IMG/VR virus record: IMGVR_UViG_2609459794_000003
From: a virus
Lineage: Duplodnaviria; Heunggongvirae; Uroviricota; Caudoviricetes
Reading direction: 5' to 3' (one strand)
DNA: 19,084 nucleotides
The stretch's first letter is position 1; every line of letters starts with the position of its first letter. Made by a program: the position numbers and the translations under genes. Under the pieces are notes generated by a model. That model was not told the DNA's origin and made no database searches. It saw only the letters and a program-made list of their open reading frames with translations. This document shows positions 43-8,529 of this stretch, in pieces.

Positions 43-933
43 TCAGGCTGCCAGATCATCGTTTCCGATGGAAGCATAATAAGCTTTTTCTGCTTCTGCC
101 GGAGGAGTATGGCCCAGCCTTTCCAGCAATCGTCGATTGTTATACCAGTCCACCCACGTGAGTGTGGCCAGTTCCACTTCTGCACGGTTTTTCCAGCTCT
201 TACGGTGTATTACCTCCGCTTTGTAAAGACCATTGATGCTCTCCGCCATCGCGTTGTCATACGAGTCGCCTGTACTTCCTGTTGATGCCAGTAATCCGGC
301 TTCCTTAAGCCGCTGTGTGTAGGCCAGCGATACATACTGAGAACCTTTATCACTGTGATGGACCGTGCCGGACGGTCGACGGGCCCATAACGCCTGCTCC
401 AGTGCATCCAGCACGAATGTCGTTTCCATGGACGATGAGACCCGCCACCCCACGATGTATCCGGCAAACACATCAATGATGAACGCCACATAGACGAAGC
501 CCCGCCATGTGCTGACGTAAGTAAAATCAGCCACCCACAGCTGGTCAGGTCGTTCTGCCACGAACTGACGGTTTACGCGGTCGCCTGCGGCAACGGCTTT
601 CCGGCTGATGGTCGTACGGACCTTTTTACCCCGGAGAACACCGGCAAGTCCCATAACCGCCATGAGACGTGCCACAGTGCATCTGGCCACTCTGATACCT
701 TCCCGTAACAACTGACGCCAGACTTTACGCACACCGTATACCTTGTGATTTTCATCGTATACGCGCTGTATCTCTTTCTTCAGCCAGTCATCGCGCTGCG
801 CACGGGCACTGCGTTTATCCGGATGATGTCGCTGTTGCTGACAGTGGTAATACGTTGACGGGGCAATATGTAGTTCACTGCATACCGGTCCGACCCCGTA
901 CAGCTTACGCAGCTTATCCAGCAGTGGCATCAC
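43..933 (-). CDS. IS3-family transposase OrfB (DDE catalytic domain), probably expressed as an OrfAB fusion by -1 frameshift
   Basis: 296-aa ORF with retroviral-integrase-like DDE region (...WVADFTYV..., ...HHSDKGSQY..., ...[15 protein letters not shown]...). It overlaps orfA by a few nt in the -1 frame next to an A-rich stretch (GGAAAAAG). Confidence 0.9.
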
Positions 934-1256
934 TTTTTCCAGAGGCGGTCGAACTCCGCCTTCGCAAAATAAGCGGAAGCCTGGCGAAGGATATCGTTAC
1001 TGCGGCGCAGTTCACGATTTTCACGTTCCAGCTCTTTCAGACGCTGACGTTCAGCGGTGGTGAGCCCTCCATCACCGCCCCCGGTATCCCGCTCATGCTG
1101 GCGAACCCAGACACGCAGAGTCTCCGGCGTACAGCCAATCTTTGGAGCAATGGAACAAATTGTCGCCCATTGTGAGTCATATTCGCTCTGACTTTCCAGA
1201 ACCATACGGACTGCCCGTTGACGGACTTCGGGGGAAAAACGAGTATTTTTAGTCAT
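930..1256 (-). CDS. IS3-family transposase OrfA (HTH DNA-binding subunit)
   Basis: 108-aa [22 protein letters not shown]...[36 protein letters not shown], typical IS3-family OrfA with HTH and leucine-zipper-like C-terminus. It ends ...TGGAAAAAGTGA, overlapping the orfB start. Confidence 0.9.
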
Positions 1257-2279: not shown

Positions 2280-2303
2280 ATAAAAAAGGAGCCTGTAGCT
2301 CCC
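2280..2303 (-). terminator. putative intrinsic terminator inside the leftward early operon
   Basis: On the minus strand: GGAGC-tacag-GCTCC followed by TTTTTTATT (plus-strand stem arms at 2288-2292 and 2298-2302, A-run at 2282-2287). Confidence 0.5.
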
Positions 2304-2324
2304 TGAGGATTTTGCTTTTCATGT

Positions 2325-3174: not shown

Positions 3175-3328
3175 ACAGCCCCCGTTTATTATTTATCTCC
3201 TCAGCCAGCCGCTGTGCTTTCAGGGGATTTCGGATAACAGAAAGGCCGGGAAATATCCAGCCTCGCTTTGTAACGGAGTAGACGAAAGTGATCGCGCCTA
3301 CCCGGATATTATCGTGAGGATGCTTCAT
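3167..3328 (-). CDS. possible small ORF (53 aa) bridging exo and the methyltransferase
   Basis: ATG overlaps the exo stop (ATGA) and the last codons overlap the methyltransferase start (ATGACTGA). Translation [53 protein letters not shown]. No homology recognised; it is below the 60-aa cutoff of the ORF track. Confidence 0.3.
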
Positions 3329-3920
3329 CGCCATTGCTCCCCAAATACAAAACCAATTTCAGCCAGTGCCTCGTCCATTTTTTCGATGAACTCCGGCACC
3401 ATCTCGTCAAAACTCGCCATGTACTTTTCATCCTGCTCAATCACGACATAATGCAGGCCTTCACGCTTCATCCGCGGGTCATAGTTGGCAAAGTACCAGG
3501 CATCTTTTCGTGCCACCCACATGCTGTACTGCACCTGGGCCATGTAAGCCGATTTTATGGCTTCGAAACCACCGAGCCGGAACTTCATGAAATCCCGGGA
3601 GGTAAACGGGCATTTCAGTTCAAGGCCGTTGCCATCACTGCATAAACCATCGGGAGAGCAGGCGGTGCGCATACTTTCGTCGCGATAGATGATCGGGGAT
3701 TCAATAACATTCACGCCGGAAGTGAACTCAAACAGGGTTCTGGCGTCGTTCTCGTACTGTTTTCCCCAGGCCACTTCTTTCCTGAGCGGGGCTTTGCTAT
3801 CACGTTGTGAACTTCTGAAGCGGTGATGACGCCGAGCCGTAATTTGTGCCATGCATCATCCCCCTGTTCGACAGCTCTCACGTCGATCCCGGTACGCTGC
3901 AGGATAATGTCCGGTATCAT
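3325..3920 (-). pseudogene. exo: lambda-type exonuclease (Red alpha) disrupted by an ~85-nt internal deletion and frameshift
   Basis: Two overlapping ORFs in different frames together match lambda Exo as recalled: N-terminal [51 protein letters not shown] (3711..3920) and C-terminal ...[19 protein letters not shown]...FVFGEQWR (3325..3852). The span is 596 nt versus 681 nt expected for a 226-aa Exo; the junction is at about 3767-3773. Confidence 0.8.
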
Positions 3921-4707: not shown

Positions 4708-5004
4708 TTATACCTCTGAATCAATATCAACCTGGTGGTGAGCAATGGTTTCAACCATGTACCGGATGTGTTCTGCCATGCGCTCCTGAAACTCAACATC
4801 GTCATCAAACGCACGGGTAATGGCTTTTTTGCTGGCCCCGTGGCGTTGCAAATGATCGATGCATAGCGATTCAAACAGGTGCTGGGGCAGGCCTTTTTCC
4901 ATGTCGTCTGCCAGTTCTGCCTCTTTCTCTTCACGGGCGATCTGCTGGTAGTGACGCGCCCAGCTCTGAGCCTCAAGACGATCCTGAATGTAATAAGCGT
5001 TCAT
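4708..5004 (-). CDS. gam: Gam, host RecBCD nuclease inhibitor (98-aa short form)
   Basis: [60 protein letters not shown]... matches the lambda Gam core. AGGAGG lies 6 nt upstream of the ATG, and an in-frame stop about 20 codons upstream precludes the long lambda-style N-terminal extension. Confidence 0.9.
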
Positions 5005-5079
5005 GGCTGACCTCCTGAAAATGGCTGTGAAAATATCGCCCGCGAAATGCCAGGCTGATTAGGAAAACAGGAAAGGGGA

Positions 5080-5370
5080 TTAGTGATTCAGGCCGTTACC
5101 GCGTCCGTCGAGAAAAACTTCCACGAGCAAATCACGGGTATAAGTGCGCTCGATGCCGCGATGCAGATAAAGCCGTCCGCGTAAATTAGCTGATGCAGTC
5201 CAGGTACCATCTTTGTGTTTGACCAGCATTCCTGGCATGACCGCACCTCGATTAACGGTCTGCGTTCCATAATGTTGATGAACCATAAAAACTCCTGCCC
5301 GTAAGCTGGGCTGCTGAACATATAGAGACTTCTGCGCGTATTCAGGCGGTGGATGGCCGCCGGTTGTCAT
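5080..5370 (-). CDS. hypothetical protein in the kil/cIII position (96 aa); coding status uncertain
   Basis: Only sizeable ORF between pL and gam; GC-rich, moderate RBS (GAGG about 11 nt upstream). An alternative 77-aa frame (5088..5321) exists, so this call is weak. Confidence 0.35.
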
Positions 5371-5559
5371 AACTAAGCCGCCTCGTTGAAGCGACTAAGG
5401 TATGAAATGTTGAGTTAATTTCAGCTGGTCACACCGACGTTCACGCGTCCGTTTCACCCCTCGCACTCCCCGAAGCCTGCTGAAATTCAAACTGCGGATC
5501 TAAGCGGTCATCGCAACGGTGAATCAGGTAGTTGCCGTATCGTTGTGTTGTTGCGATGA

Positions 5560-5625
5560 ACTTATTTAAAACTATAGTTGTTTTATCGTCAACAACAAAA
5601 GTTGTTTTATTGGTTGTTTTAGATA
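5560..5625 (-). promoter_or_regulatory. putative pL promoter with OL operator half-sites
   Basis: On the minus strand: -35 TTGACG (plus 5587-5592), 17-nt spacer, -10 TTAAAT (plus 5564-5569). It is flanked by repeated GTTGTT / AACAAC motifs and is nearly identical in layout to the pR region. Confidence 0.5.
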
Positions 5626-5727
5626 TAACTGGTTGTATTTAGGATGGATTTATTTTGTGACTTGAATCGCATAGCGATAACTGAAGCGAGGTTATGGTGG
5701 TTTTTTTAACGGTGTGTGATGAGGGGA

Positions 5728-5758
5728 GGGCAAAAGAAAACCCGGCACGGTGACCGGG
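5728..5758 (-). terminator. putative intrinsic terminator downstream of cI
   Basis: On the minus strand: CCCGG-ucaccgug-CCGGG followed by TTTTCTTTTG, about 120 nt downstream of the cI stop. Confidence 0.5.
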
Positions 5759-5879
5759 ATTCTTACGCCGTTAGGTAAAGATATTATTGCGGTGGCTTAA
5801 TATTACTACCTAGAGCAAAGATAGGAATTAGTTCTTTACTGAATGAGCACAATGCCCAGTTGATAATTTTTAATTGGTA

Positions 5880-6569
5880 CTACCCATGCTTCCTATATGT
5901 CTGCGGCATGCTCCCAATAACCTTACCGAAGATGAACACCCGGTTCATCTCGTCTTTCTCGATCGGGTCCCACGGTGAGTAGCTTTTGTTATCAGAGATG
6001 ACCAGCAGCTTATCCTTCATCATTTGCAGGCGCTTTACATGGGCTGTGTCGTCGTACAGAAACGCATAGATACCATCACCGTCGAAAGATTTAACTGTGA
6101 TATCAACGAACAGCAGATCACCTGGTTCGATCGTTCCTGACATGCTGTCACCACGCACGTTAATGATGCGGATATTTTCCGCCTTCCTACCATCGAACAT
6201 GTGACGAGCATCGTCAAACGAGTACTCAACCGAGCGTAGAACTTCTACAAACTCACGGTTGATGACTCCCGGCCCAGCACTGACTTCTATATCAAGAACG
6301 TCAATCTTGAAGTATTTGGAATGGCTGACAGTTGATTGTATTGGTTGCACTGTACTGTCTGACATATTTCCAACGCCAGAAGATAACCATTCTGCGCGCA
6401 CACCCAAAGCGTTCGCGATCTCCACGATTTTAGTTGTTTGATTAGCTTTCCCTGTTTCGATTTTCTGAATAGCAGCCTGGCTAACCCCGACCAAATCCCC
6501 AAGCGCCTTTTGTGTAAGGCCTCGCGCTAATCTGGCTTCTTTAAGTCTTTCTGAGAGTGTTGTTTTCAT
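5880..6569 (-). CDS. cI: CI-type prophage repressor (N-terminal HTH plus C-terminal S24 LexA-like autopeptidase)
   Basis: HTH LTQKALGDLVGVSQAAIQKIETGK; Ala-Gly cleavage-site candidate (EVSAGPG); catalytic Ser in VRGDSMSGT and Lys in AHVKRL. The start is taken at MKTTLSERL (ATG 6567-6569); the listed ORF extends 22 codons further upstream. Confidence 0.9.
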   Translation of the reverse strand: MKTTLSERLKEARLARGLTQKALGDLVGVSQAAIQKIETGKANQTTKIVEIANALGVRAEWLSSGVGNMSDSTVQPIQSTVSHSKYFKIDVLDIEVSAGPGVINREFVEVLRSVEYSFDDARHMFDGRKAENIRIINVRGDSMSGTIEPGDLLFVDITVKSFDGDGIYAFLYDDTAHVKRLQMMKDKLLVISDNKSYSPWDPIEKDEMNRVFIFGKVIGSMPQTYRKHG

Positions 6570-6580
6570 ATTCCAAATGT

Positions 6581-6672
6581 ACAACCAAGGTTTTATTCCA
6601 TCAAACGAAAATGGTTGTTGACTAAAAACAACCATAGTTTTAATCTTGATTCAAATTAACCACGGAGGTTGT
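6581..6672 (+). promoter_or_regulatory. pR promoter and OR operator region (divergent cI/cro control)
   Basis: -35 TTGACT (6618-6623), 17-nt spacer, -10 TAATCT (6641-6646). The perfect 9-7-9 palindrome ATGGTTGTT-GACTAAA-AACAACCAT (6611-6635) overlaps the -35; further GGTTGTT / ACAACC half-sites sit at about 6581-6587 and 6666-6672. Confidence 0.6.
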
Positions 6673-6673
6673 T

Positions 6674-6904
6674 ATGAACCCAGCTATCAAAACAGCGATC
6701 AATATCGTTGGTTCACAAAAGAAACTGGGCGCTGCTTGCGAAGTTTCACAGCAGGCCGTCTATAAGTGGCTTCACAACAAAGCAAAGGTATCCCCTGAAC
6801 ATGTCGGCAGCATTGTTACGGCTACTGGTGGAGTAGTGAAGGCATACCAGATTCGCCCGGATCTTCCGAAGTTGTTTCCACACACCGAAAAGAACGCAGC
6901 TTAA
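6674..6904 (+). CDS. cro: Cro-like HTH repressor
   Basis: 76-aa ORF divergent from cI with HTH GSQKKLGAACEVSQQAVYKW and GGAGG RBS at 6664-6668. Confidence 0.8.
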   Translation: MNPAIKTAINIVGSQKKLGAACEVSQQAVYKWLHNKAKVSPEHVGSIVTATGGVVKAYQIRPDLPKLFPHTEKNAA

Positions 6905-6916
6905 ATTTCCATTTCA

Positions 6917-6929
6917 CGCTCTTTAACAA
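6917..6929 (+). promoter_or_regulatory. boxA-like antitermination element (nutR position)
   Basis: CGCTCTTTAACAA immediately downstream of cro closely matches the rrn/lambdoid boxA consensus (GCTCTTTAACAA). No convincing boxB hairpin follows. Confidence 0.45.
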
Positions 6930-6973
6930 TAAGCAATCAACTTAACAGTCAATTCAAACTAAAGGAGTCAATT

Positions 6974-7513
6974 ATGCAACCACTTACATACCAACAGACT
7001 AGCGGATTTAGCCCGACTGCGGTGATAAATCGTTCTCAAACAAAACAGGTGCCAGGCCACGAAAAAATCCGTGATGCCGTCCGCGCCTGGTCGGCTGTAG
7101 ATAATCAGGATGTCGTTGCCACACTCATTGTGAATGAGTATCGGGAGCAGGGCGGCGGCACCATCGATTTCCCTGATGATGTCAGCCGTGCACGCCAGAA
7201 GCTGTTCCGCTTCCTCGATAACAAATTCGATTCTGAAAAATACCGAAATAACGTGCGTGAACTGACCCCGGCAATTCTGGCGGTACTACCGCTGGAATAT
7301 CGCGGTTACCTGGTTGAGCAGGATAGCTTCATGGCTAGGTTGGCTGAAATGGAAAAGGAACTCAGTGAGGCAAAACAGGCTGTCATTCTCAACGCACCAC
7401 GCCACCAGAAACTGAAGGAAATTAGTGAAGGTATTGTGTCGATGTTTCGTGTGGACCCAGATCTGGCTGGTCCATTGATGGCGATGGTTACTACCATGCT
7501 GGGGGCGATATGA
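6974..7513 (+). CDS. YdaT-like protein in the cII position
   Basis: 179-aa ORF with AAGGAG RBS. Motifs EYREQGGG and LTPAILAVLPLEYR resemble the Rac prophage YdaT family as recalled. Confidence 0.55.
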   Translation: MQPLTYQQTSGFSPTAVINRSQTKQVPGHEKIRDAVRAWSAVDNQDVVATLIVNEYREQGGGTIDFPDDVSRARQKLFRFLDNKFDSEKYRNNVRELTPAILAVLPLEYRGYLVEQDSFMARLAEMEKELSEAKQAVILNAPRHQKLKEISEGIVSMFRVDPDLAGPLMAMVTTMLGAI

Positions 7514-7599: not shown

Positions 7600-8529
7600 A
7601 TGGCAAACACTGCTGAGATATTCAATTTTCCAGTGCCGGATGCGGCACAAAAGGAGCCGCGCGTGGCAGATCTCGATGATGGTTATACGCGCATTGCAAA
7701 TGAGTTGCTGGAAGCTGTGATGCTGGCCGGATTAACACAGCACCAGCTTCTGGTCTTCCTGGCTGTCATGCGCAAAACATATGGCTTTAATAAAAAACTG
7801 GATTGGGTGAGCAACGAGCAACTGTCCGAATTGACCGGGATATTGCCGCACAAGTGTTCTGCTGCAAAAAGTGTTCTGGTAAAGCGTGGGATTTTGATTC
7901 AGAGCGGGCGGAATATCGGTATTAATAATGTGGTCAGTGAATGGTCAACATTACCCGAATCAGGTAAGAAAAATAAAGTTTACCTGAAAGAGGTAAATAT
8001 ACCTGAATCAGGTAAGAAAAGTTTACCCAAATCAGGTAAAGGCGTTTACCCGAATCAGGTAAACACAAAAGACAAACTAACAAAAGACAATATAAAACCT
8101 TTTTCGTCCGAGAATTCTGGCGAATCCTCTGACCAGCCAGAAAACGATCTTCCTGTGGTGAAACCGGATGCTGCAATTCAGAGCGGCAGCAAGTGGGGGA
8201 CAGCAGAAGACCTGACCGCCGCAGAGTGGATGTTTGACATGGTGAAGACTATCGCACCATCAGCCAGAAAACCGAATTTTGCTGGGTGGGCTAACGATAT
8301 CCGCCTGATGCGTGAACGTGACGGACGTAACCACCGCGACATGTGCGTGCTGTTCCGCTGGGCATGCCAGGACAACTTCTGGTCCGGTAACGTGCTAAGT
8401 CCGGCCAAACTCCGCGACAAGTGGACCCAACTCGAAATTAACCGTAACAAGCAACAGGCAGGCGTGATAGCCAGCAAACCAAAACTCGACCTGACAAACA
8501 CAGACTGGATTTACGGGGTGGATCTATGA
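7600..8529 (+). CDS. O: replication initiator O (lambda-O-like; divergent N-terminal iteron-binding domain, lambda-like C-terminus)
   Basis: GGAGG RBS at 7591-7595, then MANTAEIFNF...RVADLDDGYTRIANELLEAV...; C-terminus ...KPKLDLTNTDWIYGVDL as in lambda O. The listed ORF starts 30 codons upstream at 7510. Confidence 0.9.
   Translation: MANTAEIFNFPVPDAAQKEPRVADLDDGYTRIANELLEAVMLAGLTQHQLLVFLAVMRKTYGFNKKLDWVSNEQLSELTGILPHKCSAAKSVLVKRGILIQSGRNIGINNVVSEWSTLPESGKKNKVYLKEVNIPESGKKSLPKSGKGVYPNQVNTKDKLTKDNIKPFSSENSGESSDQPENDLPVVKPDAAIQSGSKWGTAEDLTAAEWMFDMVKTIAPSARKPNFAGWANDIRLMRERDGRNHRDMCVLFRWACQDNFWSGNVLSPAKLRDKWTQLEINRNKQQAGVIASKPKLDLTNTDWIYGVDL
7951..8105. repeat. origin of replication: four palindromic iterons plus an AT-rich segment inside the O gene
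   Basis: Direct repeats ACC(C/T)(G/A)AATCAGGTAA at 7951-7968, 7999-8016, 8022-8040 and 8045-8064, each an internal palindrome (ACCTGA-A-TCAGGT), with a degenerate copy at 7979-7996. They are followed by the A-rich tract ACACAAAAGACAAACTAACAAAAGACAATATAAAACC. Confidence 0.75.

Follow-up and report, generated by a model that had tools for sequence, protein, structure and literature searches.

How are the distal genes of an early left operon expressed in a lambdoid phage that carries no N gene, when terminators of the lambda type lie inside the operon? The question is raised by a stretch of viral DNA of 19,084 nucleotides (nt), IMG/VR record IMGVR_UViG_2609459794_000003, referred to below in its whole length as the window. 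The window is a lambdoid phage or prophage of the lambda/DLP12-like kind, in which the leftward early promoter pL is followed by a long untranslated leader and then by kil. Here we describe a conserved RNA element of about 100 nt within this leader, the core. As far as can be judged from sequence comparison, there is about an even chance that the core is a new cis-acting antiterminator RNA, analogous to put and representing an unrelated RNA family.

A conserved core RNA behind pL

About 47 nt separate the core from the inferred transcription start (+1) of pL. It consists of an invariant linker, two hairpins and a tail which closes a pseudoknot.

5412-5511, minus strand: core RNA element, about 100 nt, found by covariance model R3 with 126 bits
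5499-5509, minus strand: single-stranded linker GACCGCUUAGA, invariant in 13 of 13 diverse sequences
5470-5497, minus strand: hairpin PA, 5497-5488 paired with 5479-5470, closed by the loop AAUUUCAG (5487-5480)
5427-5458, minus strand: irregular hairpin P3, GGGGUGAAAC..GGUGUGACC, 5458-5446 paired with 5439-5427, variable hexaloop
5418-5424, minus strand: tail CUGAAAU, in a pseudoknot with the PA loop (AUUUCAG, 5486-5480), within a perfect 9-bp repeat

Covariation was counted on the 13 diverse sequences and compared with 500 shuffles. The core fold has 92% of its cells paired in this set. Seven core pairs change on both sides, a number equalled by 6 of the 500 shuffles, while the fifteen cells with double-sided changes were equalled by none. 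The covariation score (0.211 vs 0.134 for shuffles) was likewise not reached in any of them, and sliding the registers left 0-1 double-sided pairs. Four of the pairs with compensatory changes are in PA (e.g., CG to UA, GC to AU, AU to CG) and three are in P3, where 99% of the cells are paired and the G.G and A.G mismatches are conserved. The double-sided changes span E. coli, plasmid-borne, IMG/VR and Edwardsiella phages.

The pseudoknot also varies in a compensated way: in Edwardsiella-type phages it is formed by UAUCAG/CUGAUA, where an A-U pair replaces the U-A of E. coli. This is the true register; in the MAFFT alignment the pseudoknot rows of three Edwardsiella sequences stood one column off. 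Next to the compensating stems there are strands that do not change at all, namely GACCGCUUAGA, GAG(U/C)GCGAGGGGUGAA and GG(U/C)GUGACCA. The closing helix of 5506-5504 (CGC) with 5464-5462 (GCG) never varies either; the linker CGC may pair with this GCG.

Among 45 distinct E. coli leaders, RNAalifold predicted 64 pairs with zero compensatory changes. The E. coli polymorphisms within the core (leader nt 67, 85, 106 and 141; four common ones) are compatible with wobble pairing or fall on unpaired positions. The preliminary description of this DNA had presented the leader as structured and had proposed covariation analysis across related prophages. A conserved structured RNA does lie behind pL, and its core covaries across lineages; yet the E. 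coli variants by themselves are uninformative on covariation, the core (5511-5412) and its pseudoknot had gone unrecognised, and the hairpin on which that description was built (H1, treated below) is peripheral. A fold made mainly of H1 and a long-range helix, H2, was also considered here; it was displaced by PA and the pseudoknot after the Edwardsiella and L314 sequences had been aligned.

Distribution of the core and its exchange with put

The leader is present in 2231 of 5426 complete E. coli genomes (about 41%), nearly always unannotated, and in Bievrevirus phages and their relatives (PhiR34_1, Turner, IdasGreatGrand, 4C10, 4A7, Perceval). BLAST against plasmids found diverged copies in E. 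coli pMTY18781-3 (86%) and Edwardsiella tarda pFL6-60 (77%), and L231, L314 and three more variants of the Edwardsiella type came from motif scans of IMG/VR. Model R3 finds a single core copy per phage (the window, L001, L188, L314, L194, L230, L310 and L311), always close behind the leftward early promoter; HK022, HK639, lambda and the loci of other genera yield no copy. A weak second match in L311 (2188-2280, plus strand; 18 bits, E of about 0.09), 7.5 kb from the real copy and on the same strand, is probably due to chance.

The element stands behind at least five different promoter/immunity types. The gene that follows is kil in 197 of 209 loci. In pFL6-60 the element is followed by a convergent two-gene insert and then by rdgC, and in L314 by a homologue of HK639_45. 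Because different genes follow in these two cases, the element belongs to pL and not to kil.

L314 is informative in another respect. It shares with HK639 an identical 52-nt leader start, the 3' flank and the first gene. Between these common flanks HK639 has an annotated putL-like antiterminator RNA and L314 has the core, a precise cassette swap between the two phages. The HK639 RNA was reportedly described by King in 2011 (reference 31 of PMC9378689). A strong intrinsic terminator is located about 750 nt downstream in L314, where the HK639 record annotates terminators. Taken together, the covariation and the exchange with the HK639 put cassette point to a function in read-through.

Terminators within the early left operon

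Two terminator hairpins known from lambda lie downstream of the core.

3242-3264, minus strand: terminator-like hairpin, near-identical to lambda 31287-31265
2286-2304, minus strand: intrinsic terminator AGGGAGCUACAGGCUCCUU followed by UUUUAUU, upstream of a traR-like gene, an ASCH-like open reading frame (ORF) and xis

The hairpin at 2304-2286 is the same in lambda at 30691 and corresponds to the internal terminator placed at 2280-2303 by the preliminary description, which had also argued that distal genes would need read-through. Both hairpins are kept in PhiR34_1 and in an O157 prophage, with xis beyond them. The comparative evidence is in line with that argument.

The pL transcript and its leader

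5564-5592, minus strand: promoter pL, -35 TTGACG at 5592-5587, 17-nt spacer, -10 TTAAAT at 5569-5564
5557, minus strand: early left +1, inferred from the 7-nt distance to the -10 element in three promoter types and from the conservation boundary
5080-5286, minus strand: kil, a cell-division inhibitor gene of PHROG 294 and the operon's first real gene

The promoter elements are found where pL had been proposed (about 5564-5592), and operator-like AACAAC/GTTGTT repeats reach to about 5640. Phages of other immunity types have a different promoter at this place, and their similarity to the window resumes at about 5557; at least three other promoter/operator types regain it there, 7 nt past each -10. 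Position 5557 was taken as +1 because the conservation boundary falls there, at this same distance from the -10 element in each type.

Since kil starts at ATG 5286, the leader measures 271 nt (5557-5287), not about 190 nt as first estimated from an ORF starting at 5370. The PHROG Kil family aligned only to residues 20-96 of that longer ORF. Similarity in Citrobacter, Kluyvera, Enterobacter and Silvania begins exactly at ATG 5286, with the Shine-Dalgarno (SD) sequence AGGAG upstream, and the Prokaryotic Genome Annotation Pipeline (PGAP) places the kil start at 5286 too. A CTATAG palindrome creates a promoter-like sequence on the opposite strand (TTGCGA-16-TATAGT, 5551-5578, plus strand), which overlaps pL and faces the end of cI.

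No N gene in the leader

The leader had been reported to hold no arginine-rich ORF of the N type, a short N-like ORF with a non-canonical start being the case to look for. Such an ORF does exist.

5395-5490, minus strand: arginine-rich ORF of 31 amino acids, MNFSRLRGVRGVKRTRERRCDQLKLTQHFIP, from TTG 5490 to TAG 5395; not a gene

Its status was decided by counting variable sites by codon position over 69 distinct E. coli-type sequences. In kil, positions 1, 2 and 3 have 0, 1 and 18 variable sites; the corresponding numbers are 7, 4 and 5 in the TTG ORF (5490-5398) and 2, 2 and 2 in 5370-5287. The TTG ORF moreover carries indels of -1, +1 and +5 in natural variants. The codon-position test and the frameshift indels exclude it as an N-like gene, and the same test excludes an N-terminal extension of kil from ATG 5370. 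The conclusion that there is no N gene stands, as does the remark that the sole ATG frame is three codons long (it opens with the ATG at 5511).

The TAG at 5395-5397 (minus strand) reads CAG in most relatives and the frame then continues into kil; therefore some phage records (L002, L007, L008) annotate a 'Kil' of 128-139 amino acids with an arginine-rich N-terminal extension, which is an annotation artefact.

Scans with Pfam and PHROGs, covering the leader and the early ORFs, revealed no N-like protein. Searches with lambda N and the HK022 Nun ORF by tblastn gave no match in the 209 element-bearing loci (1.46 Mb), and isolated plaque-forming phages with an identical leader have no N annotated.

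Proposed function of the core

Starting from what is observed directly, that is, the element with its conservation, covariation, position and exchange with put, we infer that the core binds RNA polymerase and causes antitermination. The pL transcript would start at about 5557 and be untranslated over its first 271 nt, with a variable 5' hairpin coming first. The core (5511-5412) would then fold during synthesis into PA, P3 and the pseudoknot that joins the PA loop to the 3' tail. It would act in cis on the very polymerase that has just made it, staying bound, and this polymerase would resist the lambda-type terminators at 3264-3242 and 2304-2286. Distal genes, xis and presumably int, could in this way be expressed without an N protein.

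Several results weigh against an antiterminator. The covariation is based on only about four lineages. The folding energy of the core is no better than that of shuffles (z = -0.36), and neither is the minimum free energy (MFE) of leader nt 1-140 (z = +0.5). Within E. coli the 5' 187 nt of the leader vary at about the rate of third codon positions in kil (p = 0.23). BLAST and R3 found a single copy, with none on the right arm, in the window and in each related locus; a metagenome scan for further homologues gave chance matches only; and the leader is a different one in the kil-first prophages of Citrobacter, Kluyvera, Enterobacter and relatives. The best match in the window to a put covariance model (R1, built from 7 put sequences) scores 8.3 bits (E = 1.3) and is located at 2448-2500, outside the leader. 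Finally, the terminators may simply be leaky.

In its wider form the proposal is that a second, structurally unrelated family of polymerase-modifying antiterminator RNA, pseudoknotted, about 100 nt long and interchangeable with put, replaces N/nut in Edwardsiella phages and in the lineage of lambda-like prophages that is commonest in E. coli, perhaps in concert with a boxA-only mechanism of the rrn type on the right arm; to this we would give slightly less than an even chance. If it is true, RNA-only antitermination evolved more than once, and structural work on RNA control of pausing and termination would gain a second fold. It would account for the expression of xis/int and distal early genes in very common N-less lambda-like prophages, and synthetic biology would obtain a small new part that makes transcription proof against terminators. 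The element itself stands unannotated in thousands of genomes.

Other explanations for the conserved leader

It is less likely that the conserved RNA is a regulatory 5' untranslated region (UTR) with some other job: protection from Rho or RNase E, control of translation of the toxic kil, or titration of a host small RNA (sRNA) as a GcvB decoy. The two parts of the leader that flank the core bear on this explanation.

5508-5559, minus strand: hairpin H1, arms 5559-5550 and 5517-5508, with a 32-nt CA-rich loop
5287-5416, minus strand: kil-proximal UTR with three hairpins, ending with the SD sequence AGGAG

H1 begins at +1, which is the arrangement of known 5' stabilisers, and such a 5' hairpin together with a G-rich folded core could shield the leader from Rho or RNase E. 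The composition alternates along the leader in keeping with this: the C/G ratio is 2.8 over nt 1-40, then 0.35, then 2.75 over nt 131-170. In a check for a rut site, it was at most 1.6 over 78-nt windows, the first C-rich patch lying within H1. A stabiliser or Rho shield, however, would need no invariant single strands, conserved mismatches or pseudoknot.

The inverted repeat of H1, CATCGCAAC/GTTGCGATG, is real and even longer than the 9 bp first noted: a perfect 10 bp, 5508-5517 with 5550-5559. Dinucleotide shuffles of 5370-5625 gave a repeat of at least 9 bp in 3.5% of cases and of at least 10 bp in 1.2%. A further 9-bp repeat, also perfect and overlooked before, joins 5417-5425 to 5479-5487; only 12 repeats of this kind exist in the 19-kb window, and the leader thus holds two of them. 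The inner pairs of H1 differ between lineages with pairing kept (CG/AU/AU/CG in E. coli vs AU/GC or AU/AU in Edwardsiella-type phages). H1 is nevertheless a variable and dispensable 5' part: its loop ranges from 14 to 40 nt and is unrelated between lineages, the hairpin is absent in L314, and on its own it folds with z = -1.55.

As to titration, leader nt 5-16 (5542-5553, minus strand; CAACAACACAAC) are complementary over all 12 nt to the GcvB R1 seed (nt 72-83), and this 12-mer is unique in the window. It sits, however, in the non-conserved H1 and is absent from the L052-type, Edwardsiella-type and L314 leaders. The H1 loop also contains TACCTGATTCA (5524-5534, minus strand), identical to the left halves of all four ori iterons (TTACCTGATTCGGGTAA) in the O gene (7957-8061); most relatives differ there, and the half-site is probably a chance occurrence.

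Control of kil translation concerns the other end of the leader. The kil-proximal UTR is the most conserved part of the leader and, over 5416-5287 (130 nt), the best-folding one (z = -3.0). Within 5370-5287, 6 of 84 sites vary, against 18 of 68 kil third codon positions (p = 0.0015). In the MFE structure the SD sequence is paired with AACUC at leader nt 142-146, but this pairing is broken in several natural variants. The segment is homologous to the post-terminator segment of HK639-like phages; the common part includes the hairpin GGCGGCCAUCCACCGCC, which in those phages comes after an intrinsic terminator. Probably, the kil-proximal UTR is a separate control element for kil. An IMG/VR contig with kil and the kil-proximal segment, L175, has a put element about 900 nt upstream (385-460, plus strand), which at 94.9 bits scores the same as that of HK639; therefore, put-type and kil-type modules combine freely. 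The core, for its part, travels with pL and not with kil, as seen in Edwardsiella phages and L314, and a regulatory UTR of any of these kinds leaves the put swap unexplained.

A factor-dependent variant of antitermination is still less probable, namely that a protein, either a phage factor not recognised so far or host Nus factors, loads on the element as on a nut site, in place of an RNA acting by itself. The purine-purine mismatches of P3 and the invariant single strands do resemble protein-binding motifs. Nus factors are also apparently engaged on the right arm: the only perfect boxA in the window, CGCTCTTTAACAA (6917-6929, plus strand), is located 13 nt after the cro stop codon, without a boxB hairpin, and a boxA after cro is also found in two element-bearing Edwardsiella-type phages (L230 at about 4606 and L311 at about 8598, both on the minus strand). 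This suggests an N-independent, rrn-like use of Nus factors there. The pL leader, on the contrary, contains no boxA even with up to 3 mismatches, and no N, Nun or other antitermination family was found among the early genes. The inspected annotations, in which no systematic search was made, showed no candidate protein common to the contexts in E. coli, L314 and Edwardsiella.

That the leader has no function at all, being a mosaic junction left by a deleted N/nut or gene-bearing segment whose repeats and conservation reflect recent ancestry, is very improbable: the 95-100% identity of E. coli copies and likewise of neighbouring genes, the lack of compensatory changes among the E. coli variants, the unexceptional folding energy and the resemblance of the leader to a fusion of the element with an HK639-like post-terminator segment would fit it, but compensatory changes occur in phages of Edwardsiella (Hafniaceae) with unrelated flanks, invariant strands adjoin variable stems, and the element recurs behind all those promoter/immunity types.

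Leaders of kil-first prophages in other genera

In the kil-first leaders of other genera (L010-L017, L098-L177), the 5' domain contains four compensatory pairs (UCCGG/CCGGA vs CCGAC/GUCGG). The motif GUUCCGCCAGCCUGGCGACAAGGGCAAAG recurs ahead of the first gene, and kil is preceded by an 18-bp helix in which U-A, U.G and C-G pairs replace one another. These leaders look like another uncharacterised family of structured leaders. Kinship with the leader of the window was rejected in favour of a different family: covariance model R2, built from 24 kil-first leaders of Citrobacter, Kluyvera and Enterobacter (type A), gave no leader match above chance on the window, and by nhmmer only the kil-proximal segment, which L160/L175 share, was found.

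Other features of the window

5880-6635, minus strand: S24-type repressor
5741-5758, minus strand: repressor terminator, between the repressor and pL

The minus strand carries, in order, the S24-type repressor, the terminator, pL, the long leader, kil, gam, bet, an apparently split exo, a methyltransferase, a small ORF, the terminator at 2304-2286, the traR-like gene, the ASCH-like ORF, an xis-like ORF and an IS3 insertion. The region from gam to orf61 (5086-2015) is 95-98% identical to lambda 33193-30402, and 5000-5900 is 99.8% identical to Escherichia phage PhiR34_1. The right arm is DLP12-like (emrE, ybcK, ybcL, ybcM, ybcN, ninE, ybcO, rusA, ylcG, Q).

The exo region (3325-3920, minus strand) is seemingly split into the overlapping ORFs 3920-3711 and 3852-3325. 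The BLAST alignment with lambda is broken in exo at 3767/3780, which could be a frameshift or a small duplication. The IS3-family insertion (43-1256, minus strand; orfA 930-1256, orfB 43-933) lies directly to the left of the xis-like ORF (1308-1475) and may separate xis from int. An ALIL frameshift pseudoknot is located inside it (859-975, 116 bits) and is the sole match in the window at Rfam 15 gathering thresholds.

Comparison with known systems

We came across no description of the element in Rfam 15 or in the literature that could be searched; at E <= 10, Rfam 15 gave only chance-level miRNA, CRISPR and ctRNA matches on 5000-7100. For another N-less lambdoid phage, a 2025 paper suggests 'a put RNA-mediated mechanism like HK022' (PMC12315714).

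Among prophage sRNAs, AgvB is a 51-60-nt RNA encoded downstream of pR' with its own terminator, and it mimics the sequence complementary to the GcvB R1 seed (PMC4104026). The leader resembles AgvB and the GcvB sponge SroC in having a CA-rich 12-mer complementary to this seed at its 5' end. Unlike in AgvB, the match belongs to a long mRNA leader and lies where that leader is not conserved. AgvB and svsR were rejected as identities of the element, since they are encoded at different loci (PMC4104026, PMC12803456).

As in boxA-only antitermination of rrn operons, a consensus boxA (CGCUCUUUAACAA) is present in the early right transcript of the window; unlike there, the element of the left arm has no boxA, which is found on the other arm. 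The core takes the same place on the map as N/nutL in lambda, between pL and the recombination genes, and the downstream operon, its terminators and the boxA after cro are shared with lambda as well. In contrast to lambda, there is no N gene, the left leader has neither boxA nor boxB, and the boxA of the right arm lacks a boxB.

The closest parallel is with put, the cis-acting polymerase-utilization antiterminator RNA, of which HK022 has two (putL and putR). Put-mediated read-through needs no protein factors and is blocked by mutations in the zinc-binding domain of the beta' subunit. Put RNAs form one narrow sequence family, with GAACGGC, GUCGG, GGCGGGUUCAGGAUGA and CAAU conserved in two stem-loops over about 70 nt. 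Model R1 recognises them readily (HK022 putL 94 bits, putR 59, HK639 95, L175 95). The preliminary description had recommended searching the leader with put-like or nut-like models; neither R1 nor the boxA search matched anything in it, and a blastn-short search of the window for put was negative.

Like putL, the core follows pL immediately, in a lambdoid phage without N, and begins within about 50 nt of the 5' end of its transcript, with intrinsic terminators (3264-3242 and 2304-2286) downstream of it, and in L314 it occupies the flanks that in HK639 hold the put-like RNA. It differs from put in having no sequence or structure match with it, being a hairpin plus an irregular hairpin plus a pseudoknot over about 100 nt. 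It also differs from the two put sites of HK022 in being single-copy, but the HK639 record annotates the left element only. To our knowledge, put RNAs are the sole phage nascent RNAs that reprogram bacterial RNA polymerase without a dedicated protein factor. Should the function of the core hold, it would constitute a second, unrelated family of the put kind.

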